Part shown: positions 3,153 through 22,990 of the stretch, in pieces
Position numbering within the stretch: the stretch's first letter is position 1
Layout: each line of letters starts with the position of its first letter
Virus record (IMG/VR): IMGVR_UViG_2744054517_000003
Location: 32,001-96,000 of that record
Length of the DNA: 64,000 nt
From: a virus
Taxonomy: Duplodnaviria > Caudoviricetes
Reading direction: 5' to 3' (one strand)
The notes under the pieces: generated by a model
The model's database searches: none
The model's input: only the letters and a program-made list of their open reading frames with translations
Told to the model about the DNA's origin: nothing
Position numbers and translations under genes: made by a program

Positions 3153-3167
3153 TTTAAACCCCTCCTA

Positions 3168-6420: not shown

Positions 6421-6471
6421 AAGATGCTGGTGAAGGGAATTGAACCCCCGGCCTACGCATTACGAGTGCGT
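6421..6471 (-). repeat. att site, 3' half of tRNA-Thr(CGT), left copy
   Basis: Minus strand ACGCA-CTCGTAA-TGCGT anticodon arm, T-arm and acceptor strand; 47 bp identical to 22944-22990; tRNA 5' half absent. Confidence 0.9.
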
Positions 6472-6727
6472 CTAATCTCCGCTATCGTCCCGAAACCTAG
6501 ACGTAGCCTATGACGGACATTCAGACGATGACCTACGGATTGTACGAAGCCCTACGGTTTGGTATTTTAATACATAGTGATTATACCACGGGGATATTAT
6601 CGTAGCAACGCACTCATAAACGAAGAAAAGACACCTGAAATTTTCCATTCTATCATTTAAATTATACAACCTTTGCTGTATACTGTTTATTGTAATAAAA
6701 ATACATCACCAGTTTTAGGAGTAACTA

Positions 6728-7255
6728 ATGGACCCACAACCAACGCCACAACTTCAGGAGAATAGCTGCGACGCTATCCTAGATACAGCTAAAACTTTAT
6801 ATAATGATGAGATAGATCGCTTTAAACAAGTTGAAGCCAAAACCGGTATCACGTTAGGTTTTGTCGGCGTTATTTTAGGTGTTTTTATAACCTATATTGG
6901 GACCTCTAAACTTCAAATGGATATGGTCCCCTACGTTGTATATTCGTACTTTTTTAGGTTATCTATTATAGCTCTGTTAACTGCGAGTTCTATCAAACTA
7001 ATCAATGCAATAAAAGTCGGGAGTTTCCAACAAATTGACATAAATAATATAGTAGATGAAGACTTTGCAAAAGAAAGACCTGCTAAGGTTAAACTGGACA
7101 TCGCTGCTACTTATCAAGAAACTATCAATCAAAATTCAGAAAAAATTGATGAGAAGAATGATAATTATAACGTTGGACTTAATTTAATGATGTATGGATT
7201 CGTACTGTTTATTGTCTATATTATACTAGAGGAGATTATTAAAAATGCCAGATAA
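6728..7255 (+). CDS. Three-TM membrane cargo protein (Pycsar-effector-like topology)
   Basis: DRFKQVEAKTGITLGFVGV...K...YNVGL pattern; AT-rich; AGGAG RBS. Confidence 0.6.
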   Translation: MDPQPTPQLQENSCDAILDTAKTLYNDEIDRFKQVEAKTGITLGFVGVILGVFITYIGTSKLQMDMVPYVVYSYFFRLSIIALLTASSIKLINAIKVGSFQQIDINNIVDEDFAKERPAKVKLDIAATYQETINQNSEKIDEKNDNYNVGLNLMMYGFVLFIVYIILEEIIKNAR

Positions 7256-7400
7256 AGAAAATCGAAGTAAATTCTCTAACAATTCTTCTGACACACCAAG
7301 AAGTAGGGGGACAAAGCCTGTGAAACGCGATGCCTTTTCTCAGAATAATAGTAATCCCGCTAAAGGAACACCTCGTCCTAATACAACTAAAAAGAATTAA
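7245..7400 (+). CDS. 51-aa polar, low-complexity peptide
   Basis: GAGGAG RBS; overlaps the upstream stop; MPDKENRSKFSNNSSDTPRS...KKN. Confidence 0.5.
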   Translation: MPDKENRSKFSNNSSDTPRSRGTKPVKRDAFSQNNSNPAKGTPRPNTTKKN

Positions 7401-8167
7401 ACGAAGAAAAAGCGCCCGCCCACGGATCATAACCGTAGACGGGCGCTTTATAATTTCCGGAAGTTTATTTTGATACGCCGATTTCTCACGCACCTGATTT
7501 CGGGCCGCGCGAGGGGGCGCTTGGGGGTACAGCCCTCGCAATCTGCACGCAAAAAGACGCTCATTCATTCGCTTTTGATAGCGTAAATAAGCGTTATTTT
7601 CGATCGGACACACGCAGCCATACGTACCACCAGTCGCCTTTTATGCAGCGGATATTCACGGACATGTGCACAAAATCCATATTATGCGAATATGTCTGCG
7701 CCCGGAACCCGCGCCATTATGCGGTTGATACCGCGTTGCATAAACGCACCCTATGCACTGTATATACATTACCAGTGTATAATCCGTATAAATCCCGTAG
7801 CTACGCGGCTTTCCGTCCTCTCCGGCCACCTACCCGCTGGTAACATATGCAGCTAAATACACTGGTTCTCTCGTCCGTTATACACTGCATATGCAGCCGA
7901 AACGTATGACGGATTTACGCTATACCCGAAAGTTTCCGTAGCTATAAAACTGCGAGACTCCGCGCCCCAACTGGTCCTTCAGCTATTAGAATGCTTTCGT
8001 ATTCGAAAAATTCCAGAGCGGTCGCGCGTCAGGAGCGTCGTGTAGGAAAATTCGCTATAAAGTACACTTTTGGGACACCATAACTAGCCGCTAAAGCCCT
8101 ATATACCGCTGATATAACGCCATTTCACCCGATTTCGTGTACGGTATGAATCCGAACCGACTCACGC

Positions 8168-8470
8168 TTAAATAAGGCCGAGCATTCGGCATCTCTCCGT
8201 GATTTCATCCGCTGAAAGCGCGAGCCAATCTACCGCACTCCTATGTCGTCGACGTATTGCGGATATAAACCCTCGGTGTACCTTCTCGTATTCTTTATTA
8301 AAATCCTCACGTTGCCTCCAGCGGTACAGTGTCCGCCTATCAACTCCGCATAGAGATGCAATTTCATCCATCGTGTCATGTACGCCCTTGCGCGCCAGCA
8401 TTTCGATTGCAAGCCTATGACGCTCGTCCAACGGTGGCCGTGCGCGCCTTTTGCGTTTCTTATTCGCCAT
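8168..8470 (-). CDS. phBC6A51-type HTH protein, putative small terminase
   Basis: LDERHRLAIEML...EIASLCGVDRRTLYRWRQREDF. Confidence 0.65.
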   Translation of the reverse strand: MANKKRKRRARPPLDERHRLAIEMLARKGVHDTMDEIASLCGVDRRTLYRWRQREDFNKEYEKVHRGFISAIRRRHRSAVDWLALSADEITERCRMLGLI

Positions 8471-8527
8471 TGTAACGCAACTCCTTCCGTATGTAAAAAA
8501 AGAGCGAGCCGCAGCCCGCCCGTAAGT

Positions 8528-10609
8528 TTAATTCGCCCATGCTTTAACGAACGCGCGCGCGATCTTTTCGATGTCTGCGTCTTCACGTATGGTCGTACCG
8601 TACATATTGACTACGATACCTCCGTTGCTGCCCTTACCACGTTGTTGATCGCGCCATTCAGACGCCTCGTGCTTCGTTAAGACCGCCTCATCACGGTGAA
8701 GTGTAGCGGGATAACCGTTCATAGGTACCCGGTCAAGTCCGCCCGCGTGCTTATTGCCAAGCTTTTTCCGCCGCTCCGCGTTATGTGCCGCCAACTGGTC
8801 GTCTGGAACACCGCCCATCCACGTAGGCAAGTGCTTATTCGTCCAGTCAAAGAATCCATTCACAGCGTCGCTCGATCCAAGAGACTTCGCTCCCTGACCA
8901 ATGTAAACATTAGATGCACCACCGCCTGCTCCTATTGCAGCCCCTGCGAGGGCACCACCAGGACCAAACAGACCGCCGACTATTGCCCCGCCGCCACCGT
9001 TAAGCACCGCACTAGCGATAGGGTCATTAGCGATCGCTTTCTGTATCCCGTCAATTAATCCAGACCCAAGTTTTAACCCGACACTCACAAACGTTGGTAC
9101 GGCTGCTTCGAGAGACGATGCCATGAACTGAACGACCTGTGCTGTCAATTTCTCTACAGCGTCTCGCCCCCCACCATTCCACCAATTGGAGAACGCCTTT
9201 TCTATCTTTTCGAAGGCGAACGCGACTTTACTTTTAATGTCTGGAAGCTTCGTAAACTCAGGGTTATTAATAAAGTTATCCTTGAGGAACGTTTTAGCGG
9301 TTGTTACTGCGCTCTCTACCGCTGCGGTAATCTGCGGAGTGTACTTAACGACAAAGTCTGCGGCAGCTTGCGCGAGCTTCTTCAGGATCGGCATCGTCGG
9401 AAGCAATGCGGAAATTCTTAAAGTTTCCAATGCTCCTTCGAATTGTTCTACCGCACCCGCTGCGTTATCCATCTTCTTGGTTGCGACTTGTAACGCGGTG
9501 ACATTCGCCATCTCCTGTTGAAATTTCTTAACGCCAGCCGCGCCTTCTTTGAAGAGGATGTTGCCCGCACGAATTGCATCGGACCCAAATATCTGATGCA
9601 AGTAGTATTGACGTTGCTCGTTCGTAAGCTTCCCGAATCGGTTCTTCAGCAAATCCGCTACTTGCGCTAGGTCTTTAATCTCACCCTTTTCGTCGTAAAA
9701 CGCAGAGTGTACGAGATTACTCGCGGTTAAGAACTTCTTCGTTTCCTTCGTGGCCTTAGCCGTACCGACCTTGAGTCCCGTCTGCGCTGCGACGTATTTC
9801 TCGATATCCTTCGTAACCGCTTGGACGGATGTGCCCGTTGACTTAATGCCCTTTTTGGACATAAATGCGAGGGCATCCGTGGTATTTACGGTCAAGAGAT
9901 TGAAGTCCTCGAACATGCCATACGCCTTGTCCGTTGCTGGAACCAAGTTGGACAGGAATGTCTTCAGCGACGTACCCGCGTCTGCGCCCTTCAGCCCGTT
10001 ATTCGCGAACAAGCCTAGCGCTGTATTCGTGTCCTTAAACGACTGCCCTACGCCATCAGCAACGGAACCGACCGCTGCCAACGAGTAACGCAAGTCGTGC
10101 ACGTCCGTAGCTGACGCATTCGCAGTACCCGCCAAGATATCCGCAGCCTGCGCCGCAGTTAAGCCGTCTTTCTTAAACGAGTTAAGCGCGGTCGACATAA
10201 TTTCCGCAGATTCCGCTAGGCCGAGTCCACCGGCCGTCGCCAAGTTAAGCGCTGCGTTAAGACCGCCCGCTTGGACTTGCGCGGTGGACATGCCCGCTTT
10301 CAACAGTTCCTCGATCCCTTGCGCGGCTTCGAGCGCACTATATTTCGTTAATGCGCCTTGTTGGAGCGCGAGTTGTTGCATGGCTTTCGTCTGCGCGTCT
10401 GTCGCGCCCGTTAACGCCTGAATCGTAGACATCTGTGACTCGAAACTCATCGCTTTCTTTACGGAGTCAGCCGCGAACGCAATCCCCGTAGTCGCAACAC
10501 CAATCCCCGTTGCTGCCACGCCAAATTTCGTCATATTACCGAATGCCTTACGTAGCGGGCGGCTCAAGTCATCTACTAAACGTAAGTGTCCTACCAGATC
10601 GAATGAAAT
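8528..10609 (-). CDS. Tail tape-measure protein, TP901 family (satellite)
   Basis: FESQMSTIQA...TKYSALEAAQG...GLKGADAGTSLK core; C-terminal HAGGLDRVP..G..ATLHRDEAVLT; frame extends from TTG 10567 to ATT 10609. Confidence 0.9.
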   Translation of the reverse strand: MSFDLVGHLRLVDDLSRPLRKAFGNMTKFGVAATGIGVATTGIAFAADSVKKAMSFESQMSTIQALTGATDAQTKAMQQLALQQGALTKYSALEAAQGIEELLKAGMSTAQVQAGGLNAALNLATAGGLGLAESAEIMSTALNSFKKDGLTAAQAADILAGTANASATDVHDLRYSLAAVGSVADGVGQSFKDTNTALGLFANNGLKGADAGTSLKTFLSNLVPATDKAYGMFEDFNLLTVNTTDALAFMSKKGIKSTGTSVQAVTKDIEKYVAAQTGLKVGTAKATKETKKFLTASNLVHSAFYDEKGEIKDLAQVADLLKNRFGKLTNEQRQYYLHQIFGSDAIRAGNILFKEGAAGVKKFQQEMANVTALQVATKKMDNAAGAVEQFEGALETLRISALLPTMPILKKLAQAAADFVVKYTPQITAAVESAVTTAKTFLKDNFINNPEFTKLPDIKSKVAFAFEKIEKAFSNWWNGGGRDAVEKLTAQVVQFMASSLEAAVPTFVSVGLKLGSGLIDGIQKAIANDPIASAVLNGGGGAIVGGLFGPGGALAGAAIGAGGGASNVYIGQGAKSLGSSDAVNGFFDWTNKHLPTWMGGVPDDQLAAHNAERRKKLGNKHAGGLDRVPMNGYPATLHRDEAVLTKHEASEWRDQQRGKGSNGGIVVNMYGTTIREDADIEKIARAFVKAWAN

Positions 10610-10954
10610 TTAAATCGCCGTCCTTTCGATCGCACGCACCAGGAGTTCCAACACCTTGTAAACCGCCATAGCCGGTCCTACTACGCCTTTTCCAGCCCGG
10701 ACAGCTTCGTCTACGTCGTCGATCGCGGGAAGTAGCTTCCTCATGCGGAAGCCCATTGCTTGTACACGCACCATGTCTGAAGCTTCAAACTTTGCGGCCA
10801 CTTCGTTCCATATCGCTGCCTGCTCAGGAAAACTATCTGCGAAATCATACGAACCGGGACGCTTGTGCGTTAAGACCGATTCAATCAACCGAATTATGGG
10901 CGTTACGCGCTCCATATCTGCGAGAACGCTGTCCGGTAGTTTAGACTTGCTCAT
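10610..10954 (-). CDS. Hypothetical protein between TAC and TMP
   Basis: 114-aa ORF, AAGGGGG RBS, abuts the TMP. Confidence 0.7.
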   Translation of the reverse strand: MSKSKLPDSVLADMERVTPIIRLIESVLTHKRPGSYDFADSFPEQAAIWNEVAAKFEASDMVRVQAMGFRMRKLLPAIDDVDEAVRAGKGVVGPAMAVYKVLELLVRAIERTAI

Positions 10955-10967
10955 TCGTATTCCCCCT

Positions 10968-11138
10968 TTATCTTTGTTGCGCCGCCTTCGCTTCCCGTTC
11001 GAACTGGAGCATCATCGACGCGTACATAAACATCCGGTGTCTCCGGTCTTTCGCGTAAACCTCGTCGGGCGGGATGCCGTGACGCTGAAAGATTTCATGC
11101 AGCACGTACGATTCCCCGCCCGACTTAATTAGTTTTTT
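10968..11138 (-). CDS. Tail assembly chaperone -1 frameshift extension (gpGT-like)
   Basis: A AAA AAC at 11138-11132; -1 frame KLIKSGGESYVLHEIFQRHGIPPDEVY...MYASM...QQR. Confidence 0.75.
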   Translation of the reverse strand, partial: KKLIKSGGESYVLHEIFQRHGIPPDEVYAKDRRHRMFMYASMMLQFEREAKAAQQR

Positions 11139-11506
11139 GCGTCTTGGATAAGCTCCGAGTCTCCCACGAATCCGGATAGTTTAAGCAACGCCTGTACGAG
11201 GCGGGATTGTTCGCCAGGTAACAACGCCTTCTTGACGACGTCAGCCGAATCGGACGCCTCGTAATGATCTTTCAATGCCTTATCGTTAAGGTCTGGGTCA
11301 GCTACGGCTTTAACGATGAGCAAACGGTTAAATAGCGACTCGTCGACACTGCCGTCCTTACCCGTCGTAGCCTGTGCGCGAGCCTTTTCGAGTGTGTCTT
11401 CATCCAGCGCTTTGACGATAAAATCCGTACCCAAACGAGGGATGTACACGCCTTCCTGTAAATCCGTGGTTGCTCCGAGTAGTGCGTCAAGTCTGCTTGT
11501 TGTCAT
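11129..11506 (-). CDS. Tail assembly chaperone, XkdN-like (satellite)
   Basis: PDLND..L..HY......VVKKALLPGE...LSGF....AKN; similar to 46571-46993. Confidence 0.85.
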   Translation of the reverse strand: MTTSRLDALLGATTDLQEGVYIPRLGTDFIVKALDEDTLEKARAQATTGKDGSVDESLFNRLLIVKAVADPDLNDKALKDHYEASDSADVVKKALLPGEQSRLVQALLKLSGFVGDSELIQDAKN

Positions 11507-11580
11507 ATAATCAGCCTCCGTATGGTATTTTTGGAAAACAAAAAGAGGCCCCGAAGGACCTCCGTGATATCGCTATTTAC

Positions 11581-12678
11581 TTACGCGGTCAGCCCTTTGA
11601 TACGGGCGTGTGCCTTCTCTTGCTCAAACTCTAGTGTGTACTCTCCGACGATGATACCGGACTGATAATCGCCTTTGACGCCAAGATACGTATGACCAAA
11701 GGAGCGGTTGCCGAGTGGTCGAATCTTAATCCGATTCGCGTCGATAAACAGAATCTCGTCTGGCTTCAGGTTATCGTTTAACACGACTTGGAACGTACCG
11801 AAGTCATTGACGATGTGGTCGACTTTCTGGCCGCGACTATTCTCTGCTTGTGTCAAACGGATTTGCGTAAATGCCATGTCGCTAATTGCGCGCTTCTGCA
11901 CGGCAGGAACAACGAACGTATAGCCTGCGCTTCCTGTGGCAAAACCGCCCGCATTGTAGACTTGTTGCGCCACGTCATCGAGCAGCTTTTTCGTAACTGG
12001 TCCGCCCGCAGTGGTCACGTTAGTCTCGATGAAGCTACGGATGCCGCGCATTGTGCGCATATCCCCGCTATCAAATTTGCGACCGCCGATAATGGCTTTC
12101 TCAAGTTGGAGCGCAAGTTCAAGCTGCTTCTTCGCCTTCTCATATGCGTAAAGGCCGCTTGACCCTATGCCATACTGCGCAACTGCTTCCGCCGAACCGG
12201 TTACACTAACCGTGTCTTCAAAAATCTGCGTTACGTTGTCTACTTTTGTTTTGGACTTATACCGTGCGTCGCGTGCATCAGCACCTTCTCGGCTGTCTCC
12301 ATAAAGAGACTCAATCGGAGCATCTTTTGCAATTGCAGCAGCCGTTGTGCCACTATGCCCCCGGACAACCGTAATCTTATTCGCGGTAGTATCCACAGAT
12401 TGGATCAGTACTAGCTCATCGCCTACCTCCGCAATCGTGTGCGGTCGGAATGGCTCGGTGCTGGCTACTTTGATCTCCGTTGCGTCCGCAGCAGCGGCGG
12501 CAGTGACCGTCGTTCGTGTCGCAAACATCGCATCTTCTAGCCAAACGTGCGTAGTTGATGTAACTGGCTGGCTGAAGCCGAGTAAATTCAACATCGGCGT
12601 TTGTGTTGGGTTAAGTAGCAGAATTTCATCAGTTACAGATTCACGTTTACCTACCAAGTCAGTTGTATAAATTGTCAT
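11581..12678 (-). CDS. Major capsid protein (DUF5309/SU10-like) with inserted beta-rich domain
   Basis: RESVTDEI...TP...HVWLED...NVTQIF...VTGS...GIIVGEYTLE...EKAHA. Confidence 0.85.
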   Translation of the reverse strand: MTIYTTDLVGKRESVTDEILLLNPTQTPMLNLLGFSQPVTSTTHVWLEDAMFATRTTVTAAAAADATEIKVASTEPFRPHTIAEVGDELVLIQSVDTTANKITVVRGHSGTTAAAIAKDAPIESLYGDSREGADARDARYKSKTKVDNVTQIFEDTVSVTGSAEAVAQYGIGSSGLYAYEKAKKQLELALQLEKAIIGGRKFDSGDMRTMRGIRSFIETNVTTAGGPVTKKLLDDVAQQVYNAGGFATGSAGYTFVVPAVQKRAISDMAFTQIRLTQAENSRGQKVDHIVNDFGTFQVVLNDNLKPDEILFIDANRIKIRPLGNRSFGHTYLGVKGDYQSGIIVGEYTLEFEQEKAHARIKGLTA

Positions 12679-12693
12679 AATAAATTCCCCCTA

Positions 12694-13146
12694 TTAATTT
12701 TGTGATTTAAGTTTACTTTTGAGTTCCATATACTCAACCATGTCTTCCGGACGCCCGGTACGCTTAGCCTTTTCCGCTGCTGTCGCAAGTCGCTGTTCAC
12801 TCGTCTTTTCGGCTCGCTCACCATAATTGGGCGCAAACGGGCCTCCTATAGAACGCGGTTCCCTTGGTTTAGCGGCGGAGGTAAACGCGGTCAGGATTTC
12901 ATCAATCCCCTGCGCTTGCCCTGCGTCATCAAACGTTACAGCGGAAAGATTTACGATACCCGCCAGTGCGTCCGGATCGTCAATCCCTGCTGCTCTTGCC
13001 TTCCGATAGAAGGCGTTACTGACACGTTGACTGTGTAGCTCCGTTGTCAACGTTTCGAGCCGCTGTGTGAGCTCTGCGCGTTCATCCTCCCACGTTGGTT
13101 CTTGCGTTTGTTCTTCCGGAATCTCCGGATTTGTTACGTCCTCCAC
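12694..13146 (-). CDS. Capsid scaffolding protein
   Basis: Acidic N-terminus, coiled coil, C-terminal helix; directly upstream of the MCP. Confidence 0.7.
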   Translation of the reverse strand: MEDVTNPEIPEEQTQEPTWEDERAELTQRLETLTTELHSQRVSNAFYRKARAAGIDDPDALAGIVNLSAVTFDDAGQAQGIDEILTAFTSAAKPREPRSIGGPFAPNYGERAEKTSEQRLATAAEKAKRTGRPEDMVEYMELKSKLKSQN

Positions 13147-13251
13147 GTATACCGCTCCTTTACCATTTAAATTTCATGTGTCTGAACCACGTAAAACCTC
13201 GTGGCGTCATTAGCCGTTTTATTGCCGGGGTAATCATCGGACTCACCTCCC

Positions 13252-13533
13252 TCACGCTGATTCCTCTGTTACGGTAATTATTTGTAGTGCTCGATCGGCT
13301 GCACCCGGAACGTTTGAATGAAGCCGAATACTCTTACCGACAAACAATCCCTGCGCAACGACCTCGTCAAAAGCGGAAACTATCGCGCCAGCTCCAGCCT
13401 CGATTGGATCATCGCTATCTTCGGGAATCGGTTTACTACCTTGTAGAATCGGCCACCCAACGGATGAGTCAACGTAGACAAAGTCACGGCCAAAGTTCCG
13501 CTCATGCTCAATCGTCGGTAATCCCTTGCTCAT
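13252..13533 (-). CDS. Hypothetical protein
   Basis: 93-aa ORF with AAAGGGGAG RBS. Confidence 0.55.
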   Translation of the reverse strand: MSKGLPTIEHERNFGRDFVYVDSSVGWPILQGSKPIPEDSDDPIEAGAGAIVSAFDEVVAQGLFVGKSIRLHSNVPGAADRALQIITVTEESA

Positions 13534-13753
13534 TTCCGTCTCCCCTTTCGTCTACGTCTCCGTTCCTCTTCCGCAATCATAGGCGCAGCAAATCGAATCC
13601 ATGCGCGGGATACGGAGTCACCGAATGTAATATTGGTACCGTCAGCGAACGTTACGACTGTGTGATACTGGTTAACCCCGTTGTTTAACATGTTCGCGTT
13701 TTCCTTTCGTAATTTAAAGTATTAAAGTGTTGGTATAAAAATAAAGACGCCTG

Positions 13754-13984
13754 TTAAAGCGCCAGTTTAGTTGATTCCTTTGCTCGCTGAATTGCAGCTA
13801 AAACGTCGTCTCCCGTTCCGAAAACCTGCGCGATCTTGATTCGCAGGTCTCGGGAAACCGTTCGACGGCCGTTTTCAACGTCTGATATGCAAGACTGACT
13901 CACGGCTAAAGCCTCCGCGAAACTTGCCTGCGTCATGCCGACCATAACGCGAATGCCACGAACTCCCGTTCCGTCCATTATCAC
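13754..13984 (-). CDS. XRE-family HTH regulator
   Basis: MTQASFAEALAVSQSCISDVENGRR. Confidence 0.85.
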   Translation of the reverse strand: MIMDGTGVRGIRVMVGMTQASFAEALAVSQSCISDVENGRRTVSRDLRIKIAQVFGTGDDVLAAIQRAKESTKLAL

Positions 13985-14059: not shown

Positions 14060-15019
14060 TTAGGCGGAAATGTGGACAGTACGGGGCTTGCGGCATTCTA
14101 CAAACTCCTCTGTCAATGGTTGTTCGTACATGTTATACGTGACTACTGGTCCCCACCATATGGAGTGTTCATTGCCCTTGTATTTGTTCCGGTTACTCGT
14201 CCACCTATATTCCCCATCCAGGTAACCCGCGTTCTCAGTTCCCTTCTTATCTACGAGCTGCGCAGTATTCTTTCGACCGTGCCCTTCCTTCCGCTTCTTC
14301 GCATCAATCATATTCGCAATTTTCTTTGGATTTCCGAATGACCGCTCAGAGCGCTCCTGTAGGTCCTCCATCTCCTGGGGATTGTAGAAACCGTACTCCA
14401 TTTGCGTGCGATTTCGCTCACCCTCAAGTTTGACAGTTCCGTATCTGTCGTGGCGTTCCCACAGCGTCTTAGATACTCGGCGGCAACTAGGTCCGCAGTC
14501 CACTTTACTCGCGCGGCCCTCGAAAGGGTAACGGCATACACGACATAGCTTGACGCCCATTTTCTCGGCGATACCCTCTGCGTCAGCCTCACAGTAAATC
14601 CGTACATTGTGCTTCCTCATGAAGTCTCGCGCGCCCTCCCCTGGCGGAACATCAACGTCACGATCACGAGGTTTGTCGTATGGATCGCGTAAAATTGATA
14701 ACCCGTTAACGTGATCCTCAGCGAGAACATAATCCGCCAGCCGTTCCAAGCGCTGTTTATCGAGCCGCGTCCGAAACCTGCTGTCACCGCCTATGTGAGC
14801 ATCGAAATAATAAGCGTCATATAATTCGACCATTGTCTCCGCTATCTTCAGCCTCAGCTCAAGCGGATGCTTAGCGTAGGCCCGGTAGTTGGCACGTGTC
14901 CAGTTCGGGAACAATTCGCAGGAGTCTCCAGAATAATCATATCTGTCTACGTCTGGCGTAACGATGAGCTCAAGTTGTGGGCTATGTTGGTACTCAACTA
15001 ACTTTTTGGCTGCTTCCAT
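14060..15019 (-). CDS. Hypothetical protein with Zn-finger-like CxxC...CxxxC
   Basis: CRVCRYPF...CGPSCR. Confidence 0.7.
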   Translation of the reverse strand: MEAAKKLVEYQHSPQLELIVTPDVDRYDYSGDSCELFPNWTRANYRAYAKHPLELRLKIAETMVELYDAYYFDAHIGGDSRFRTRLDKQRLERLADYVLAEDHVNGLSILRDPYDKPRDRDVDVPPGEGARDFMRKHNVRIYCEADAEGIAEKMGVKLCRVCRYPFEGRASKVDCGPSCRRVSKTLWERHDRYGTVKLEGERNRTQMEYGFYNPQEMEDLQERSERSFGNPKKIANMIDAKKRKEGHGRKNTAQLVDKKGTENAGYLDGEYRWTSNRNKYKGNEHSIWWGPVVTYNMYEQPLTEEFVECRKPRTVHISA

Positions 15020-15222: not shown

Positions 15223-15334
15223 TTTCTCTTTTACGTATTTCTCTTTTACACCTTTCTCTTTTTACCGTGTGATCTGATCATACTAGGCGTGATACGATCT
15301 GACCGTACTTACCGTAGTGTGATCTGATCGTACT
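15223..15334. repeat. Iteron-like repeats, candidate replication origin
   Basis: 3x TTTCTCTTTT(T)AC, then 3x GATCTGAYCRTACT at 25-bp period (15271, 15296, 15321), just downstream of a rep-like gene. Confidence 0.65.
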
Positions 15335-15860
15335 AAGCGGAGTGACGGGCGTTTCGGCGTGTTACCGAACCATAAATACTCAAGTCCGGCTCAATTACCG
15401 TTCCTTCCTCGTCAACGATGTATCCGTCATCAGTGATTCGCGGGCAGTATGACGGGAAATACCATTTGAAGCGCCGTGTACCCTCGTACCGGGTAGCTGT
15501 GCGAATAATTCCATTGGTCTCCAGAATATCCGCAAGCAATTTAATCCGCGAGCGGTCAATCCTAAGCGTAGACATCAAGGTCTCATACGATATAAAGCAC
15601 GCCCCAAATCTGTCGTTAAGCGTTCCGTCGCTACGGAGATGGTTTCCATCAATATACGATTGCAATGTAAAGTAGAATGCCACGATATCCCTAATTTCCG
15701 GTTTACGCTGCCTACCTGCGTACACGATATCGAGCGTTTCATTAATAATTCGCGGGAATACCTTACGTACGAGGTCGCGGTTGTAAACCTCAAACCCGCG
15801 AGGGTCATCAAGAAGAGATACCTTATCGTTGGGAAGCGGATTACGGTTTCTTTCGGTCAT
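15333..15860 (-). CDS. Winged-HTH replication-initiator-like protein
   Basis: GACFISYETL...LRIDRSRIK...LETNGII; adjacent iterons. Confidence 0.55.
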   Translation of the reverse strand: MTERNRNPLPNDKVSLLDDPRGFEVYNRDLVRKVFPRIINETLDIVYAGRQRKPEIRDIVAFYFTLQSYIDGNHLRSDGTLNDRFGACFISYETLMSTLRIDRSRIKLLADILETNGIIRTATRYEGTRRFKWYFPSYCPRITDDGYIVDEEGTVIEPDLSIYGSVTRRNARHSA

Positions 15861-16489
15861 TTCGACATCTCCTCTATTTCGTATTTCTCGTAAAATTCCG
15901 CATACGTCAGCGACTCAAGCGGTTCGTATATGAGCTTGTTCGGAATGCGATCGGACTTTGTGACGTTGAGCAAACCGTAACGGCAAAGCGTAGCCGTGTG
16001 CTGGCGTATTTTGTACGGAGATAGCCCCGTTTGCGCCTCTATTTCGCGTTGATTTAGCCACGTTTTACCGTATAATCGGTGGCTCGGCTTGTTTTGGCAC
16101 CAGGAACGTAAATAACCGTAAAAGCCCGCCGTTTCCACGGTAAAAACTTCGAGTTTCGGATACAGCCGGTAAAGGATGACAGGGACCTTAACGAAGCGAT
16201 TATCGGTTTCGTGCGAGATTACTAAATCTACGCTCTCCCATTGCTCCGTAATCTTCCTAATCAGAGTTCGGACAATTCTCCTATGCTCCTGGGTTTTCGG
16301 CGCGACAATAAATCCTCCTTGGAAATCCGTAATTACTTCATCATCACAAGATATTGTTAGTTTGAATACTCTACTGTTCATGATCCCATGAGTAGAAGGG
16401 CTATCGGATATTTTTGCCCCAAAATCATAGGACCCTATCTTGCCGCGGTACCAATGGAGCTCATTTGCCTTTTTAATTTCAAATTCCAT
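15857..16489 (-). CDS. Phage replication-organiser-like HTH protein
   Basis: FVKVP...YGYL...WLNQREIEAQTGLS...L..YGLL. Confidence 0.55.
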   Translation of the reverse strand: MEFEIKKANELHWYRGKIGSYDFGAKISDSPSTHGIMNSRVFKLTISCDDEVITDFQGGFIVAPKTQEHRRIVRTLIRKITEQWESVDLVISHETDNRFVKVPVILYRLYPKLEVFTVETAGFYGYLRSWCQNKPSHRLYGKTWLNQREIEAQTGLSPYKIRQHTATLCRYGLLNVTKSDRIPNKLIYEPLESLTYAEFYEKYEIEEMSK

Positions 16490-16560
16490 AATCTATCTTC
16501 CCCTTTTAGTTGGTATTTTGAGCGACAGTCCACAACGGAGCCGCCGCGTTGTAGAACCAA

Positions 16561-17007
16561 TTAATACGTAAAGTAATACTCTCCTCCAGATTTCTCGCAT
16601 AGCTCAATAGCGAGGTCTACGTTAAGATCAAGGCACCCTGTATCAATCTCCGCTACCTTTGTATACTCCTTCTTTCTAATCTCAATCTTCCCGGTGCCGC
16701 CGAGTTCTTGGTCAATTAAATAATCTGCGTTCTGAAAGGCTCTGCTTTCCTCGCACACGATCTCGTAAAGTTTAAGAGCGAAGCACATCTCGTATGCTTT
16801 TTCAATGATGTTGGAAGATCGTACCGGCCGGCCCATTTCGAAACGACGAAGCGTACTTGTACTGATTCCGAGTTTACAAGAGACTTCTTCGAGCGTGAGT
16901 CCATCCGCCTGACGCCGCTCCTTAAAACGCGCCCCCTTCTCCGCCCATTCTCCGGCTTTCTTAGCTACGTACTGCTCTCGTGTCAACAATGCATTTGTCA
17001 TAATCAA
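16561..17007 (-). CDS. XRE-family HTH protein
   Basis: RRQADGLTLEEVSCKLGISTSTLRRFEMG. Confidence 0.8.
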   Translation of the reverse strand: MIMTNALLTREQYVAKKAGEWAEKGARFKERRQADGLTLEEVSCKLGISTSTLRRFEMGRPVRSSNIIEKAYEMCFALKLYEIVCEESRAFQNADYLIDQELGGTGKIEIRKKEYTKVAEIDTGCLDLNVDLAIELCEKSGGEYYFTY

Positions 17008-17057
17008 ATCGCTCCCTTTTCGTTTGGTTTTATGAAATGCGGTTTCCCGCGGTCTAC

Positions 17058-17467
17058 CTAGTTAACCGAATGCGCGTCGTCGTTACGCACACATTTACGC
17101 AGTGTTTTCCGTCCTACAGTATCTTGCTGCCGGTCACTCGCGTTTCGCACATCGACTTACACTACTTTGTTTCCAGCGGAATGAGTTTCGCGTAGGTGAG
17201 CGTAATGTTTTTCCGCCTTATACTGTATTAACTACAACGGATGTCCCCTTCGCACATCTGCCTTTCATCTACTTCAACGGATGAGAAATCTCGTCTCGCA
17301 CACTTTTCCGAAAATTCTCGGCCGTACACATACTTCAACGCCGCCCAACAGCTCGTGACACACTTTTGAGGAAATTTATTTTCGTCCACCATAGTTAACA
17401 CGTCGGCCGATGACCGTTTCGCACATCGGATACTGTATTATCTACAACGAATTTTGATTCCGCACAG
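17058..17467 (-). promoter_or_regulatory. Array of 7 bipartite promoter-like motifs
   Basis: TGTGCG (once TGTGTC) followed 17-22 nt later by GTTAACTA, GTTGAAGTA or RATACWGTA, all on the minus strand. Confidence 0.55.
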
Positions 17468-17562
17468 TCCTGTGAGAATTTTTCCCCCCTATATATGATA
17501 AGGACACAAAATCGCCAAAATGGGGCACGCTAAAAACTTTTTTCGTTATTTCTGAAACCAAC

Positions 17563-17576
17563 GGAACTCACGTTCG
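17563..17576. promoter_or_regulatory. LexA (SOS) box inside an ECF sigmaW-like promoter
   Basis: GGAACTCACGTTCG (GAAC-N4-GTTC); TGAAAC-N16-CGTA at 17553-17578 on the plus strand. Confidence 0.5.
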
Positions 17577-17596
17577 TATTACTGGATATAACAAGC

Positions 17597-17893
17597 AGAC
17601 GATCGGTGCCTGAACCGGATTTACCGGCCGATCGTCCGAGGATGAAAAATCTATGTGAACTACGCCTGCCTAACGGATATTGCCGTATCCGGACGTAGGA
17701 ATTATCGAAGTCGGCCGGTAGTTGGGACGTTGGCGCGTCCTTTCACTACCGACCGGGATTGCCGAGCATTTGGCGCTACTCAGCATTAAAGCAGCGACCT
17801 GTTAGCGCAGGCCGAGCGTCCGCATAGCGACCTCTCCGATTGACGTCGGAAAGTACGGACATTTGATTGGACCGCTCGTTGGCGCGAGGCGGC
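17597..17893 (+). ncRNA. Candidate multi-hairpin RNA or ssDNA element with repeated TTRVCG loops
   Basis: Five perfect stems with loops TTGCCG, TTGGCG, TTAGCG, TTGACG, TTGGCG, plus one weak stem. Confidence 0.55.
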
Positions 17894-17971
17894 CGACCTG
17901 GTAGGGTGTTAAACCGTCTCCTCCCCATTGAATGCCCGAAATGATTGGCGTCATTTCGAACAAACGTAGGT

Positions 17972-18334
17972 TCATTGGAGAACCTGAAACGGAAACTCTC
18001 CGACCATATTATTGAGGACGTCTTGCGTCAGCCATTCGATGACATCACGGCCATGCAGTTTGGTAACGATCTCCGGTATGACTACAGCCGGATCTCGCGT
18101 GACGTTGGTTGCAAGTCTAACGCTAGACGTGTTTCGGTTTTCGATATAAAACCGATTAATGCCCGTCTGGTATATCCGCTCAACCTTTGATAGATAGACG
18201 GTACCCTCCAGTACAAAAAACGCATATCCCGGTTTGACGAGGAAGCCCTCGCTCATGTCGTAATCGAGGTCGTCGTCTTCCCATACGTGCAAAATAACGA
18301 TCTTTTCGAGAACAGAGATACCATCCATACTCAA
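17972..18334 (-). CDS. Hypothetical protein
   Basis: 120-aa ORF coupled to the upstream ORF. Confidence 0.6.
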   Translation of the reverse strand: MSMDGISVLEKIVILHVWEDDDLDYDMSEGFLVKPGYAFFVLEGTVYLSKVERIYQTGINRFYIENRNTSSVRLATNVTRDPAVVIPEIVTKLHGRDVIEWLTQDVLNNMVGEFPFQVLQ

Positions 18335-18624: not shown

Positions 18625-19113
18625 TTACGCGTAGTTTATAAATTGCTTACTGCGTTCAATCTGGACGCCTCCCTTCCCGACGATGAATCCGAGTTCCTTC
18701 ATAACGTCCATTGACAGCGTTAAGCTACCGAGCGGTGACCGCCGACTGACTCCCGCTGTCTTCCAGAATGCACGCGGCTGTATGACGAGTTCCTGATGCG
18801 TACCGACGTACCGAACTATGTAGTTCCCTGTGATCGGATCGAGTACGTAGCGAACTTGAGCCGGAGTAACTAGCGGGCGTACAACACGGAAGACTTCGCG
18901 CTTCATTTGTGCGTCTAATTCAAAGCCGAGTTCGACGAGCTGTGCCGGAGTAGCCTCAACAATGTCACCGTAGAGATACGGATTAGCTTGCGGTATAATA
19001 GTGAGGAATAATTCCGATGTAACGCGGAGTTCTTGACGTGAGCAGCCGCTTCCGACCGTGAGGATGACGTTACTTTCGCGACGATTACGGATGAAACCTA
19101 ACGTGATTGACAT
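18625..19113 (-). CDS. Hypothetical protein, first gene of the leftward operon
   Basis: GGAGG RBS; two similar halves ending ELGF. Confidence 0.7.
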   Translation of the reverse strand: MSITLGFIRNRRESNVILTVGSGCSRQELRVTSELFLTIIPQANPYLYGDIVEATPAQLVELGFELDAQMKREVFRVVRPLVTPAQVRYVLDPITGNYIVRYVGTHQELVIQPRAFWKTAGVSRRSPLGSLTLSMDVMKELGFIVGKGGVQIERSKQFINYA

Positions 19114-19283: not shown

Positions 19284-19324
19284 TTATATTCTGCTGTGGT
19301 GTTTAAGAGAAAGAGGGGGAAATT

Positions 19325-19570
19325 TTGAGTAATAGGACTCTCGTCTGTGATTTGAAAAATCTTTTACTTGAAAAAGGTTGGGAGCAGAAGAAGCTATCGG
19401 AATTAACTGGTATTCGAGAGGCGACAATTTCGGAGTTAGTAAGAAACAAGAATAAAATGTTCCCACGTCAGGTACTAGAAAAAATTATTAACGTACTGGA
19501 AATAGACGATATAACAAAGCTAATCCGCATTGAGTACATATCCCAAGGTGCCAAAGAAAGTACTGATTAA
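19325..19570 (+). CDS. XRE/HTH_26 repressor of the satellite
   Basis: LKNLL...QKKLSELTGIREATISEL; divergent from the leftward operon. Confidence 0.8.
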   Translation: MSNRTLVCDLKNLLLEKGWEQKKLSELTGIREATISELVRNKNKMFPRQVLEKIINVLEIDDITKLIRIEYISQGAKESTD

Positions 19571-19763
19571 ATGCAAAAGAGCCGTTAACCATACGGCTCT
19601 TTTTTTTGCGTGGATTTATCGAGAGATTCGTTAAGGAATACTATGTCGAAAAATATTGTAATTCTACATGCTTGACCCAAGTAACTCATTTTTGGTATAA
19701 TTTTTTTGTCTAAAGAACAAAAAATAGATTTCCTTTAAGATTATAGATCATGGAGGTGCCATT

Positions 19764-20315
19764 TTGAATAAACCTACGCCTGATTACATTAGAGATACTG
19801 CTGTATCTATTTTGCAAGATTACGATATGGGAATAAAGCAGTCGGACCTCTGGAGAGAAGTTGAGACGTTTTTATCTGAATCTGGTTATGAAATCACTGA
19901 CCATACACTCAAGAACGCACTTTGGGACCTAGAAAAGCAACGGCCGGAGGAAGTTTTAAAGATTAAAAAATCAGCCAAAAATGTAGAACTGCACCCTTTA
20001 GACAATAATTCAGATAAACAAGACGCTTATGACGAAGCGTGGAATGAATCGCTACAGGATAGAGCAATAGGATCATTAATAAACCTTTCAGGCATGGTAT
20101 CAGAAATAACGGTTAGGATTGATTCTTCAGGTATCCATTCTAAATTAGATGAAACACAAGTGCTTTATATGAATGAATACCCCCCTGAAGTAATTGAGGC
20201 AATTACAACTCTTGGCATAGCGCTTGACCTCATGGAGAAAAGCAAAAGTGCCTTCAAAAATATAAGACACGTATGGGCTCTAGATTCCCGGAAGGCTAGT
20301 TTACAAAGGAGGTGA
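19764..20315 (+). CDS. Hypothetical cargo protein (wHTH-like N-terminus)
   Basis: GGAGG RBS; upstream TTGACC-N18-TATAAT promoter. Confidence 0.65.
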   Translation: MNKPTPDYIRDTAVSILQDYDMGIKQSDLWREVETFLSESGYEITDHTLKNALWDLEKQRPEEVLKIKKSAKNVELHPLDNNSDKQDAYDEAWNESLQDRAIGSLINLSGMVSEITVRIDSSGIHSKLDETQVLYMNEYPPEVIEAITTLGIALDLMEKSKSAFKNIRHVWALDSRKASLQRR

Positions 20316-20322
20316 TAACAAT

Positions 20323-20409
20323 ATGAATGTATATGAATCACTTGCAATCATGCTACAGTTTGGACTTGTCATAATTGGTATACTTACACTGGCACAGAAA
20401 AAGCGATAG
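20323..20409 (+). CDS. Putative holin-like type I toxin
   Basis: MNVYESLAIMLQFGLVIIGILTLAQKKR; AAAGGAGGTGA RBS. Confidence 0.7.
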   Translation: MNVYESLAIMLQFGLVIIGILTLAQKKR

Positions 20410-20840
20410 CCTCCCCACCATGAGCTGCTACCGCACAATACTTACAGTTTCAATAATAACGTTTAGTGTAATTACCTGCAAGACTAGGCGTAGCCCTCCG
20501 AGATTGCGTCTTTTACGTTTGTGCGTGGACAAGATAAGAACCGTAACCCTACGTATAGGCTGCGATTCTTTTCGTTTCCTGAAGTCTGCGCATCAAATAT
20601 AATTTCCAACGGTCCGTAAGATGGACGGCTCTGTCGCGACACAAAATTATCAGCTTCTAAAATCAAAAAAAAGCCCGCAATTCTCTACGTTGAGGACACG
20701 GGCTTTTAACGTTAAATTAGGCGTTTATGGCGCTACCCTTACGTGGGTATTCGGAACGGAGTTACGGCGCTTATTTGCGGTGAAATGCGATGATTAAGCT
20801 TAATAACTATGTATATATTTTGTACCACTGTCTTTCTTAA

Positions 20841-21110
20841 TTACCCTCTGTGTGCGCCCGCATACAATCCGCCCAACGCCCCGAGCACGCCACAAGCAAT
20901 AGCAGCGATCATAATTACAGGCCCTTGTATATCACGACCTTCGACCTTCTTCGTAAGGAATCCGAGAATGACCGCGATCGGAGACGTAACCACGGGAAAC
21001 CACAACAAAGAGAGTACAGCAAACGTCCATCCGAGGAACGCGAGCGCGCTACCCTTCCGTTGTTCTTGCCTTTCCGTTGGCTTGTCGCTCTTTACGACAC
21101 CGTTAATCAA
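20841..21110 (-). CDS. Small membrane protein (DUF4190-like)
   Basis: Hydrophobic helices; GGAGGGG RBS. Confidence 0.6.
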   Translation of the reverse strand: MINGVVKSDKPTERQEQRKGSALAFLGWTFAVLSLLWFPVVTSPIAVILGFLTKKVEGRDIQGPVIMIAAIACGVLGALGGLYAGAHRG

Positions 21111-21488
21111 ACCGAATCCCCTCCGTTAACTCACGTTTACCTAATAATACCATCGGACTAGTACGTTGTCACTAAAAGAAAAACGGACCCACCTACGCAA
21201 TCTCCCACGCAAATGAGTCCGTTAAAGTCCGCTACTTAGTTTCTTTCGTCTTTTGTTCCGCTTTAAACGTTGAGTACACGCCAGTCCCGATCAACGCGTA
21301 CGAAACGATGTCTACTCTGCACTTTCTAAGTATCTAATCGATTAGACAATTGGGATGAAATTGTGTAAACTAAAAATGTAACGCATTACAAAAAGAAAAG
21401 GCCGCTAATATCGCAAGACATAGCTCGGCCCTAATCTAATTTGATTGTATTTCACGAAAAATAGCCCACATCCCTGCAAAGATAGCGG

Positions 21489-21563
21489 CTATTTTTTGCG
21501 TTTTATAATAATGACAAGTGTGGCGAACATTATCATAAGTGACAAAGATTCATACACAGTCAT
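21489..21563 (-). CDS. Putative holin-like type I toxin (second copy)
   Basis: MTVYESLSLMIMFATLVIIIKRKK; GGAGGAGGTGA RBS. Confidence 0.7.
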   Translation of the reverse strand: MTVYESLSLMIMFATLVIIIKRKK

Positions 21564-21724
21564 GGGCGGTCACCTCCTCCCTAAAAGAGAGGACCGCTTT
21601 TTGCTATGCCTTGCTTTCTAAAAGTATACACCATCTCCACTCTCACCGCCTACTATTTTATACTGCTCTCATCTATCAAAAAAAATGCCCACCTCCGAAG
21701 AGATGAGCGTCGTTATGCGTTTTA

Positions 21725-22783
21725 TTAGCGTCTCTTTCCTGCGCGAGTCATTCCGAGTCGTGAAAGTGGCGAAAATTGTGAATGACTGTCTCGCATAGCA
21801 CCTTCGTTTACCTTGACGTACCCTTGCGTAGTCTTAATATCAGCGTGCGCTACGATCCGCTGCAAGGTGAAGAGGTCACCGCCATTAAGTAGATAGTTTG
21901 TGCAGAAGTAATCGCGGAATCGGTGCGGTGATACTGGAGTTACCTTCCGATCGATACCCACTTTGTCCGCATACTGGCTTAGTCTCTTTCGGAATTGGTC
22001 GGCTTTTAACGGATCACCGTAATTCGCCAGAAATATGAAGTCCGTATCAAAATAAGAGCGATTCTCTTCCATAAGGATAACCAACTCACGCAAAACACTC
22101 GCCGATACCGGAACAATTCGCGGCTTTCTGTTTTTGTTCATATGGCCCGGCAGCCGAATACATCGTGACGCGATATCCAGGTGAGTCGATTCCAGCCGCA
22201 ACGCCTCATTAATTCGCAATCCTGTATCTGCAAGTAACAACATAAGCGTACGGTCGCGGAAGCCCGCAAATGTATCAACGTCGGCAGCTTCGACTAAATC
22301 TCGGAGTTGTTCATCTACAATTACGCTCTTCTCTTCCGTATCCTTGCGTGGTGGCTTTAGCTTCTCCGCCGGGTCTTCTTTCATCAATCCCTCGGACATC
22401 CAAAATTTACACATTGTTTTCAACGCGCGGAGTCTTGACGCTACCGTTACGGGTGAGAGATTGCACCCTTCTACTCGCCGTTCTGCGACGCCGTCGTATT
22501 TTGTCCGTTCGTAGGACATGTAGTTCATATACTCGCGTAGAATGGCCGTATCGAGCTGGCCTACTTCATCTATCTCCGAGTGATTCTCCATAAGCCACTC
22601 CCGAAAATAACGCCAGTAACTTTGATAGTCTTCGAGTGTTCGTGTCCGTAACTTCTCCGCTCGTTTAGCGTTGAAGAATAGATCGAACCCCAAGTCAAGC
22701 CCGACGAAGCCGACCTCTTTTCCAGACCGCCCACTGCGGCGTTTAGCCGTAACAGCCTTACCCTTACGCGGATCAACTGACAT
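21725..22783 (-). CDS. int: Tyrosine recombinase/integrase of the satellite
   Basis: DTGLRINE, HRFR, AHADIKTTQGY catalytic residues intact; next to att. Confidence 0.95.
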   Translation of the reverse strand: MSVDPRKGKAVTAKRRSGRSGKEVGFVGLDLGFDLFFNAKRAEKLRTRTLEDYQSYWRYFREWLMENHSEIDEVGQLDTAILREYMNYMSYERTKYDGVAERRVEGCNLSPVTVASRLRALKTMCKFWMSEGLMKEDPAEKLKPPRKDTEEKSVIVDEQLRDLVEAADVDTFAGFRDRTLMLLLADTGLRINEALRLESTHLDIASRCIRLPGHMNKNRKPRIVPVSASVLRELVILMEENRSYFDTDFIFLANYGDPLKADQFRKRLSQYADKVGIDRKVTPVSPHRFRDYFCTNYLLNGGDLFTLQRIVAHADIKTTQGYVKVNEGAMRDSHSQFSPLSRLGMTRAGKRR

Positions 22784-22943
22784 AGCAAAAAACCTCCTAC
22801 AAAATACCGTAGGAGGCTCCGTATATATCGCATTTCAGCGCCGACGTTCGTCTATTTTATCGCTAGGAAAACGTTGACCTAGCGTCTGCCTATCCGGAAC
22901 ATTCAACGAGTGACAAACGTTGATATGACGGGAAATTCTAACG

Positions 22944-22990
22944 AAGATGCTGGTGAAGGGAATTGAACCCCCGGCCTACGCATTACGAGT
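22944..22990 (-). repeat. att site, 3' half of tRNA-Thr(CGT), right copy (satellite/prophage junction)
   Basis: 47-bp identity with 6421-6467; identity ends at the anticodon loop edge. Confidence 0.9.

Follow-up and report, generated by a model that had tools for sequence, protein, structure and literature searches.

A putative phage satellite family of Paenibacillus and other Bacilli with its own capsid, scaffold, chaperone and tape measure genes

Phage satellites were long thought to take whole heads and tails from their helpers. The element described here occupies positions 6421–22990 of a 64,000-nt stretch (hereafter the window; positions 32,001–96,000 of the 107,633-bp provirus record IMGVR_UViG_2744054517_000003 of IMG/VR); it carries genes for its own major capsid protein (MCP), scaffold, tail assembly chaperone (TAC) and tape measure protein (TMP), and is best explained as a helper-dependent satellite. 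Several described systems come close to it. In E. coli, 224 putative satellites of phi92/rV5-like phages were described from sequence (Barth, Dunham and Seed 2023, NAR Genom Bioinform, PMC10448857). As portrayed there, they are about 13 kb long, flanked by attachment (att) sites and mostly equipped with a tyrosine integrase by a tRNA gene; they encode an MCP and a TMP, whereas genes for terminase, protease and head-tail adaptors are missing, as are most tail genes. The PLEs of Vibrio cholerae, according to the account in PMC12987554, replace the TMP, TAC and baseplate hub of their helper with their own, which gives chimeric contractile tails, and their TMP is needed for transduction. The EPIPs of Mycolicibacterium aichiense (bioRxiv, December 2025, PMC12822802) were isolated as particles with heads smaller than those of the helper; they are described as small elements encoding a terminase small subunit (TerS), scaffold, MCP and TMP, with no portal, terminase large subunit (TerL) or tail genes. 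Finally, the cf-PICIs are described as encoding MCP, protease, portal, head-tail connectors, TerS, TerL and HNH (PMC10690885), and some of them reportedly carry tmp genes (PMC12987554, legend of Extended Data Fig. 10).

The present element resembles the E. coli satellites in being att-flanked, in having a tyrosine integrase beside a tRNA gene, and in encoding an MCP and a TMP but no terminase, protease or adaptors. It is set apart from them, as they are described, by its occurrence in Bacillota, by an SU10-type MCP with a short scaffold, by an XkdN-like chaperone with a frameshift product (G/GT; a Tal-type protein in the type B relatives presented below), and by a TerS-like helix-turn-helix (HTH) protein followed by a cos/pac-like block, whereas the E. 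coli elements belong to Proteobacteria and carry a decoration protein, a baseplate hub and a RepA_N initiator (PMC10448857). None of these three proteins had a Pfam match in the window element, and a DUF2577 gene was found only in one relative (L006), with positional counterparts in others. The comparison with PLEs, made by description and on gene content, reveals a satellite-encoded TMP and TAC on both sides (here PF10145, and PF08890 with a frameshift). However, PLEs are reported to take the coat protein of ICP1 and to remodel it with an external scaffold (PMC12987554), whereas an MCP and a scaffold are encoded here; and the PLE TMP is given as 95 aa shorter than that of its helper and 20% identical to it (PMC12987554), whereas the TMP of the present element has the length of its closest phage counterparts and is up to 95% identical to them N-terminally. 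EPIPs differ, in their published description, by a size of 11 kb, a serine integrase, a head-tail adaptor and stopper, and longer tails of variable length; in their case free, prophage-inducing particles were isolated (PMC12822802), while the present element, known from its genes, has a tyrosine integrase (PF00589) at a tRNA and a frameshifting chaperone, and its proteins did not match the adaptor and stopper families. Like cf-PICIs, in which a self-made capsid shell is combined with borrowed tails (PMC10690885), it would build its own shell, but the portal, protease, connectors, TerL and HNH of cf-PICIs are absent, so the element is not one of them. Classical PICIs/SaPIs are characterised by an integrase, a repressor, Pri-Rep, TerS and a redirection of capsid size that acts on the coat protein of the helper, with no MCP gene; set beside them, the element gives a mixed picture, with an integrase, HTH regulators, a weakly matched rep-like protein and a TerS-like HTH, but also an MCP of its own.

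The earlier note on this DNA had proposed a novel satellite class. This proposal has to be narrowed, since satellites with their own MCP and TMP but without portal and terminase are already in print (PMC10448857, PMC12822802), and chimeric tails made with a satellite TMP and TAC have been demonstrated for PLEs (PMC12987554); the concept of such a satellite is therefore not new. No published description of such a family in Paenibacillus or other Bacillota was found in the literature searched, a scope outside which supplementary tables and figures lie. What appears to be new here is a Bacillota family that combines one MCP clade with alternative tail-core cassettes matching those of myophages or siphophages, a retained G/GT pair and a phage-like packaging block.

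The borders of the element are well defined. A 47-nt direct repeat is present at 6421–6467 and 22944–22990, the copies being 100% identical and 16,523 nt apart, in agreement with the 16.5-kb unit between identical repeats that had been claimed. The 47-mer occurs just twice across the provirus record, and its 25-nt core matches the window twice against 0.00 expected (100 shuffles). The repeat corresponds to the 3' part of a tRNA-Thr(CGT), recognised via relative L012, in which an intact tRNA-Thr(cgt) lies immediately upstream of an integrase 57% identical to that of the element; each window copy shows a perfect match to this tRNA, 49 and 45 nt long respectively, that runs from the anticodon stem/loop to the 3' end. 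Neither ARAGORN nor Rfam at gathering thresholds detected an intact tRNA or tmRNA, whether in the window or in the full 107,633-bp record, and a tmRNA candidate at 6428–6502 was rejected (13.8 bits against a gathering score of 47; merely a tRNA-like T arm). On the minus strand, the distal att copy (6421–6467) gives the 3' part of the tRNA followed by a terminator-like hairpin and a T run, whereas in the integrase-proximal copy (22944–22990, minus strand) the end of an adjacent prophage stands in place of the tRNA 5' half. This half is missing because the prophage inserted at the same point, and the intact end of the tRNA would therefore lie just beyond the record. The adjacent prophage is about 52.6 kb long (22991–64000 of the window and on to the end of the record, including L110 10473–11633) and is inserted exactly at the anticodon-loop edge of this tRNA-Thr; 52.6 kb to the right, the last ORF (open reading frame) in the record encodes its tyrosine integrase. 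The left 37 kb of the record hold a second contractile-tail prophage, unrelated to the genes of the satellite. That left prophage (record 1–37000; L111, window 1–5000) encodes a 445-aa sheath-like protein, a TMP-sized ORF of 1174 aa and a PG_binding_1 protein at window 3168–3533. A third, dead integrase to the left of 6421 was not confirmed, the 66-aa ORF at 6098–6298 having no Pfam match. With two prophages and a satellite in one record, the provirus caller has fused at least three elements into the 107-kb 'provirus'.

Between the att copies, 20 ORFs were searched in Pfam, and subsets of 10 in PHROGs and in NCBIfam; the latter added nothing on the uncharacterised proteins of the element. The integrase is intact, as had been claimed (21725–22783, minus strand; 352 aa; PF00589, 1.4e-31), and is 57% identical to those of L012 and L025. 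The morphogenetic genes are all on the minus strand. They start with a 150-aa scaffold (12694–13146) whose PF06810 match, at 5e-8, is under the Pfam cut-off but which aligns with the C-terminal part of the 230–236-aa scaffolds of phages, followed by a 365-aa MCP of the SU10 type, with the HK97 fold (11581–12678; SU10_MCP, 1.3e-86), which belongs to a satellite-only clade. Next comes the 125-aa XkdN-like chaperone G (11129–11506; Phage_TAC_5/PF08890, 3.3e-18), near the end of which an in-frame A AAA AAC (11138–11132) and an open -1 frame would yield a 179-aa GT fusion (G and T together 10968–11506). The p114 gene (10610–10954) lies between GT and the TMP and has no family match; its product is confidently modelled as a four-helix bundle (pLDDT 86.8) with zero PDB matches at E≤0.001, is unlike the 117-aa protein in the same position of the adjacent prophage, and has homologues solely in satellites L006–L010. 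The TMP itself (8528–10567; PhageMin_Tail PF10145, 5.7e-39) precedes HTH100, a 100-aa protein of the HTH_Tnp_1_2 (phBC6A51) type (8168–8470; PF13022, 2.4e-12; PHROG TerS families, 3.8e-11), which is a putative TerS-like packaging specificity factor, a protein of the same family being encoded upstream of TerL in phage L040. The scaffold, MCP, G/GT chaperone, 114-aa ORF and TerS-like HTH listed by the earlier note were thus recovered, on Pfam and PHROG matches and on the frameshift site; its TMP also stands as a gene, though not at the length of about 693 aa given there, since the longest ORF encodes 679 aa. The absence of portal, TerL, tail shell and endolysin likewise agrees with the searches: for the 20 ORFs in Pfam, and for the subsets of 10 in PHROGs and NCBIfam, no match was obtained to families of portal, TerL, protease, connector, sheath, tube, baseplate or lysis proteins.

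The closest phage counterparts of this gene set are found in L039 and in L040 (a 63-kb record), both full myophages. Their order is HTH_Tnp_1_2, TerL, SPP1-type portal, minor capsid 2, PF06810 scaffold, SU10 MCP, sheath, DUF2001 tube, XkdN chaperone, PhageMin_Tail TMP and LysM protein; the gap between chaperone and TMP contains no gene in either, so that p114 has no counterpart there. The chaperone of the element is 74–76% identical to theirs. Its TMP is 88–90% identical over residues 1–469 and 93–95% over the first 250, which makes it closer to these two phages than to the TMPs of other satellites (64–82%), and at the DNA level the identity is 81–83% over 1439 nt. The earlier note had compared the TMP with that of the adjacent prophage (826 aa) and found it about 16% shorter, but the two proteins are unrelated; with 679 aa against 681 and 678 aa in L040 and L039, there is no reason to predict a shorter tail. 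Both the AAAAAAC site and the T extension have been kept in five of five relatives of type A (see below) and in all four myophages checked, the extension of the satellite being, as judged by eye, much like that of L040.

The similarity extends to noncoding DNA. Downstream of HTH100, two blocks on the minus strand (7811–7642 and 7530–7461, together spanning 7461–7811) are 77–89% identical to L040 4259–4426 and 4513–4582, and to L039; parts of them also match L046, L078 and L027. In the phages these blocks sit between the HTH_Tnp_1_2 gene and TerL. They contain stops in all three frames, in the satellite and phage versions alike, and are rich in short repeats, the second block (7530–7461) having in addition a GC-rich run. 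That the blocks follow the HTH gene in satellite and phages alike suggests a shared packaging site, and the blocks are likely a cos or pac site common to both.

A family of relatives shares this gene set. A scan with the MCP alignment (A1) returned 142 relatives, the best 80 of which were kept, and loci L005–L013 come from the MCP scan of IMG/VR and genome contigs. At least 12 further loci have the same kit with portal and TerL absent. Five provirus loci in records of 14–18 kb (L006–L010) constitute type A, with the order p162 ... scaffold, MCP, chaperone, p114, TMP and HTH. In L006 a DUF2577 gene comes right after the TMP (13198–13653), and genes in the same position are found in L009 (13943–14386) and L010 (10877–11332); this position skips the LysM gene and the next tail genes seen there in phages. 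In phage Lietuvens, a gene of the DUF2577 family adjoins the baseplate genes, and its location after the satellite TMP parallels the baseplate-hub gene of PLEs. Type B comprises L005/L013, L012, L025 and L026, L013 being apparently the same place as L005 (equal gene lengths and identities). Short scaffold, MCP and terminal HTH are preserved in these loci, which differ in having a TMP of 1170–1293 aa followed by a 438–721-aa protein, which in L005, where it was checked, is of the Prophage_tail (Tal) type. L005 lies in Paenibacillus sp. YN15, whose genome also contains a full siphophage; compared with the satellite copies, the 1179-aa TMP of this phage is 59% identical over its full length, Tal 61%, the MCP 55% and the scaffold 43%. 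The scaffolds of the satellites, at 144–158 aa, align with the C-terminal part of phage scaffolds. Further variants (L064, L109 and L117, the last two in genomes G399 and G612, respectively) likewise have no portal or TerL. In L109, a 451-aa protein with a phage-tail-repeat match (12132–13487) directly follows the MCP, and no recognisable TMP is present.

Integration at tRNA genes recurs among these loci. Perfect direct repeats at a tRNA gene were identified in 4 of 11 loci examined, 16.9–18.5 kb apart: 44 bp at a tRNA-Leu in L005 (spacing 18.5 kb), 50 bp at a tRNA-Thr in L012 (17.7 kb), 87 bp at a tRNA-Ser in L026 (16.9 kb) and 103 bp at a tRNA-Ala in L109 (17.7 kb). In the other seven (L006–L010, L025 and L064), which are trimmed provirus records, no direct repeat of at least 15 nt was found. 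Among GTDB genomes, MCP matches were obtained in 2 of 8 from the genus of G001 (E≤1e-20), 5 of 136 from its family and 17 of 401 from its order (both at E≤1e-40), and 8 of 401 from its class (E≤1e-100). The satellite-type matches were G001 in all four samples, at 75% identity in the order sample, together with G399 (61%) in the order and G612 (64%) in the class. In a large protein collection, 715 MCP homologues were found at E≤1e-60; among the 120 matches listed, about 43 clusters are at least 60% identical to the MCP and come from Paenibacillus, Brevibacillus, Aneurinibacillus and Bacillus, as proteins without gene context. In RNA libraries, contigs of relatives span the control region and portions of the TMP, p114 and TAC genes, with DNA carry-over as a possible source. 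Judged on gene content and borders, this is a conserved satellite family of Paenibacillus and other Bacilli, of 16.5–18.5 kb. The element is accordingly not a one-off deletion of a full phage, the outcome that the earlier note had set against its own proposal.

The MCPs of the family have a common origin. In a tree of 97 MCPs sorted by their flanks (80 phage, 12 apparent satellite and 5 short-contig rows; L014 was placed with the phages because it is annotated as one, its TerS and TerL having gone unrecognised by the queries), a single clade unites 11 satellite rows with the short contig L011 (SH-aLRT 100, stem 0.45, by a quick method). This clade is nested among phage MCPs. Loci with 51–57% MCP identity are full phages, with TerL, portal, minor capsid protein and a 230–236-aa scaffold upstream of the MCP and, downstream, connectors followed by a siphophage tube or by sheath and tube; a comparison of homologues found none of the phage TerL, portal, minor capsid and connector proteins in the satellite loci. 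The ratio of nonsynonymous to synonymous substitution rates (dN/dS) was computed between the window element and L006–L010. It is 0.035–0.077 for the MCP, which is under strong purifying selection, 0.06–0.16 for the chaperone, 0.075–0.157 for the scaffold, 0.07–0.09 for the small protein p93, 0.15–0.29 for p162 and 0.05–0.07 for HTH100. Relaxed selection on the MCP and TMP had been named as a further sign against a satellite; it is not seen in the MCP, and the TMP values are mostly saturated, with 0.11–0.19 where measurable.

These data are best accounted for by an integrative, helper-dependent phage satellite with its own MCP, scaffold, chaperone, TMP and candidate packaging signal, a reading in which we place reasonable though not strong confidence. 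The family itself is real and conserved, and probably functional, and the remaining virion parts are most likely borrowed from a helper phage. The kit proposed in the earlier note (scaffold, MCP, chaperone/TMP and TerS-like HTH, but no portal, TerL or tail shell) has indeed proved to be discrete, intact, selectively maintained and recurring, and we infer, as that note did, that head and tail alike have their size and identity determined by the element. A life cycle can be outlined on this basis. The element would excise after induction, possibly through LexA-like boxes, and replicate from the iterons at 15267–15339. Its MCP and short scaffold would assemble on the portal of the helper into a shell sized for about 17 kb, into which the helper TerL would package satellite DNA by means of the shared cos/pac-like site and HTH100. 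The satellite G/GT would load the tube protein of the helper around the satellite TMP, giving chimeric tails as in Vibrio PLEs. The helper, which would be a phage other than the adjacent prophage and combine an SU10-type capsid with a PBSX-like tail, would supply portal, connectors, sheath, tube, baseplate and lysis.

Several observations weigh against this reading. Excision, packaging and particle formation are, for the whole family, deduced from sequence alone. The record contains no SU10 MCP elsewhere and no phage of the helper type in its 107 kb. As a weak negative, none of the five IMG genomes with type A elements is among those carrying the 30 L040-like provirus loci, which comprise predicted proviruses only, and a second SU10 MCP, of the phage type, is present in one (G001) of the three GTDB genomes with a satellite-type MCP. 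The MCP of the element is only 56% identical to that of the candidate helper, so its nucleation on the helper portal is a presumed step. Within the family, L008 has no recognisable scaffold, L117 retains only an integrase fragment, and a relative on a 14.3-kb contig of public run X2 has lost the chaperone gene. In that contig the MCP is joined to p114 and the TMP, 567 nt (window 10969–11537) being skipped and seven letters standing between. Other public-run contigs include relatives, but the best share of the sampled words of the element in one run is 0.22, counting contigs only.

The first alternative is that the loci are a lineage of defective, cryptic prophage remnants, derived from one ancient deletion and maintained by integration and vertical descent after packaging was lost. 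Their gene order is that of a full myophage module (as in Lietuvens and L040) minus blocks, the L117 integrase is fragmented, satellite-type MCPs are rare (2 of 401 species-representative genomes in each of two samples), and the mobility of the family is itself read from its genes, all of which would suit such an origin. It nevertheless appears unlikely. In place of the relaxed selection, pseudogenes and idiosyncratic deletions of defective remnants, dN/dS values of 0.035–0.16, a shared architecture and a monophyletic MCP were found, the MCP, TAC, scaffold and HTH100 all being under strong purifying selection. Integrases of at least three types are intact, four different tRNA sites are used and the repeats are perfect, with repeat-to-repeat sizes in the narrow range of 16.5–18.5 kb. 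The frameshift and the cos/pac-like blocks have been retained, and the 81–83% DNA identity over 1439 nt speaks for a recent exchange of TAC/TMP with phages.

A second alternative concerns the helper rather than the element, and holds that the adjacent contractile-tailed prophage plays this role, the two being coupled by tandem occupancy of the tRNA-Thr. This prophage encodes an SPP1-type portal, a PF06810 scaffold, a sheath and a DUF2001 tube, and its XkdN chaperone gene bears the AAAAAAC slippery site seen in the element; Terminase_3, Mu-F, a Phage_cap_E MCP and the 826-aa TMP are also present, and it shares with the element one tRNA site, its integrase being the last ORF of the record. However, the MCP families differ (SU10-type in the element against Phage_cap_E), as the earlier note had seen; TerL is Terminase_3 instead of the Terminase_6C of L040; the TMPs are unrelated; and the chaperones are 35% identical over only 72 aa, against 74–76% for L039/L040. 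No DNA similarity was detected between the element and the remainder of the 107-kb record, and the cos/pac-like blocks are not present in the neighbour. Moreover, L012 occupies the same tRNA with no such neighbour inside its 18.4-kb record. On these grounds the adjacent prophage was rejected as the most likely helper; it is probably not the helper at all, and the idea of a coupled pair is an improbable one. The earlier note had guessed at a different Xkd-tailed phage as the true helper, and this is in keeping with the L039/L040-type myophages, with which TAC, TMP and noncoding blocks agree.

It might also be asked whether the element is chiefly an anti-phage island, whose diverged capsid, scaffold and TMP copies would act as dominant-negative decoys poisoning the assembly of related phages, with no transducing particles being made. 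Satellites often interfere with the assembly of their helpers, and the Rta protein of PLE is reported to target the helper TMP (PMC12987554); p114 is satellite-specific and adjoins the TMP, and the cargo includes a PycTM-like membrane protein. Yet interference alone leaves unexplained the integrase and att sites, the TerS-like HTH with its cos/pac-like blocks and the G/GT pair with a T domain that by eye is phage-like, and interference and transfer are in any case compatible; we regard this alternative as remote. That the element is an autonomous minimal virus, packaging and delivering its DNA without canonical portal, terminase and tail, is scarcely credible: metagenomes have led to the proposal of small HK97-fold entities that lack a portal (PMC13669383, as outlined there), but a chaperone and a TMP are of use only where there is a tube, and the element has none, the blocks resembling a packaging site match TerL-bearing phages, and lysis genes were not found among the ORFs searched in Pfam and PHROGs.

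If the family is indeed one of helper-dependent satellites, the distribution of its cassettes allows a more specific proposal, which we put forward tentatively and with rather less than even confidence. The family may be an old, monophyletic Bacilli lineage that builds its own shell on a borrowed portal and swaps its tail-core cassette with the current helper by recombination, using the chaperone-GT and TMP, with or without DUF2577, for contractile-tailed helpers and the TMP with a Tal-type protein for siphophage helpers. Such a lineage would move between myophage and siphophage helpers and produce doubly chimeric virions, with a satellite shell and a satellite TMP inside the portal, tube, sheath and baseplate of the helper.

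The other genes of the element have regulatory, replicative or accessory features. On the integrase side, the 81-aa Cro/CI-type HTH gene (19325–19570, plus strand; Pfam HTH_26, 2.6e-9) is divergent and is followed by p183 (19764–20315, plus), which has no family match; together (19325–20315) they are the putative maintenance-repressor side of a switch. On the opposite strand are p162 (18625–19113), which is present in all five type A relatives but matched no family and nothing in an Atlas search, and p120 (17972–18334), also with no family match. A repeat-rich control region (17008–17971) includes a LexA-box-like GAAC-N4-GTTC at 17564–17575 and is followed by an operon for replication or regulation (15333–17007, minus strand) encoding a 148-aa HTH protein (16561–17007, weak match), a DUF7678 protein (15857–16489) and a 175-aa rep-like protein (15333–15860, weak match). 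Next to the operon lie three 23-nt iterons with a 25-nt period (15267–15339), a candidate replication origin. The earlier note had described an operator-repressor switch, two rep-like HTH genes and iterons: the iterons are indeed there, the rep-like assignments are weak (HTH_36, E 0.006; phrog_270, 5.7e-4), and the switch is a deduction from gene layout. Further along the minus strand, p319 (14060–15019) is conserved in the family and contains a CxxC...CxxxC motif; it has no family match, a profile search against PDB sequences gave zero matches, its model is poor (pLDDT 44), and the Atlas returned only unnamed Bacillota clusters. The structural operon starts with a 76-aa XRE-type HTH gene (13754–13984, minus; Pfam HTH_3, 4.2e-9), and p93 (13252–13533, minus; no family match) is the small conserved protein upstream of the scaffold. 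Three of the five GAAC-N4-GTTC motifs (LexA/Cheo-box-like) of the window are in the satellite, one upstream of the HTH/rep operon (17564) and two around the start of the structural operon (13960 and 14038), which hints at SOS control. Finally, a 175-aa membrane protein at the distal end (6728–7255, plus) appears to be accessory cargo, with weak matches to PADLOC PycTM (8.6e-7) and phrog_23273 (2.6e-4) and none in Pfam. PycTM is the transmembrane effector domain of Pycsar defence; no cyclase gene was found beside 6728–7255.

A practical lesson is that provirus callers can fuse such satellites with neighbouring prophages. For the biology of these elements, Paenibacillus would offer a tractable system, all the more as strain YN15 holds a candidate helper and a satellite in the same chromosome set; how a foreign coat protein assembles on a helper portal, why a satellite keeps a TMP of its own, and how cassette exchange relates to helper range could be addressed there. 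That some satellites replace selected parts of the virions of their helpers is shown by PLEs, by EPIPs and by the putative elements of E. coli, and the Bacillota family would extend this pattern.

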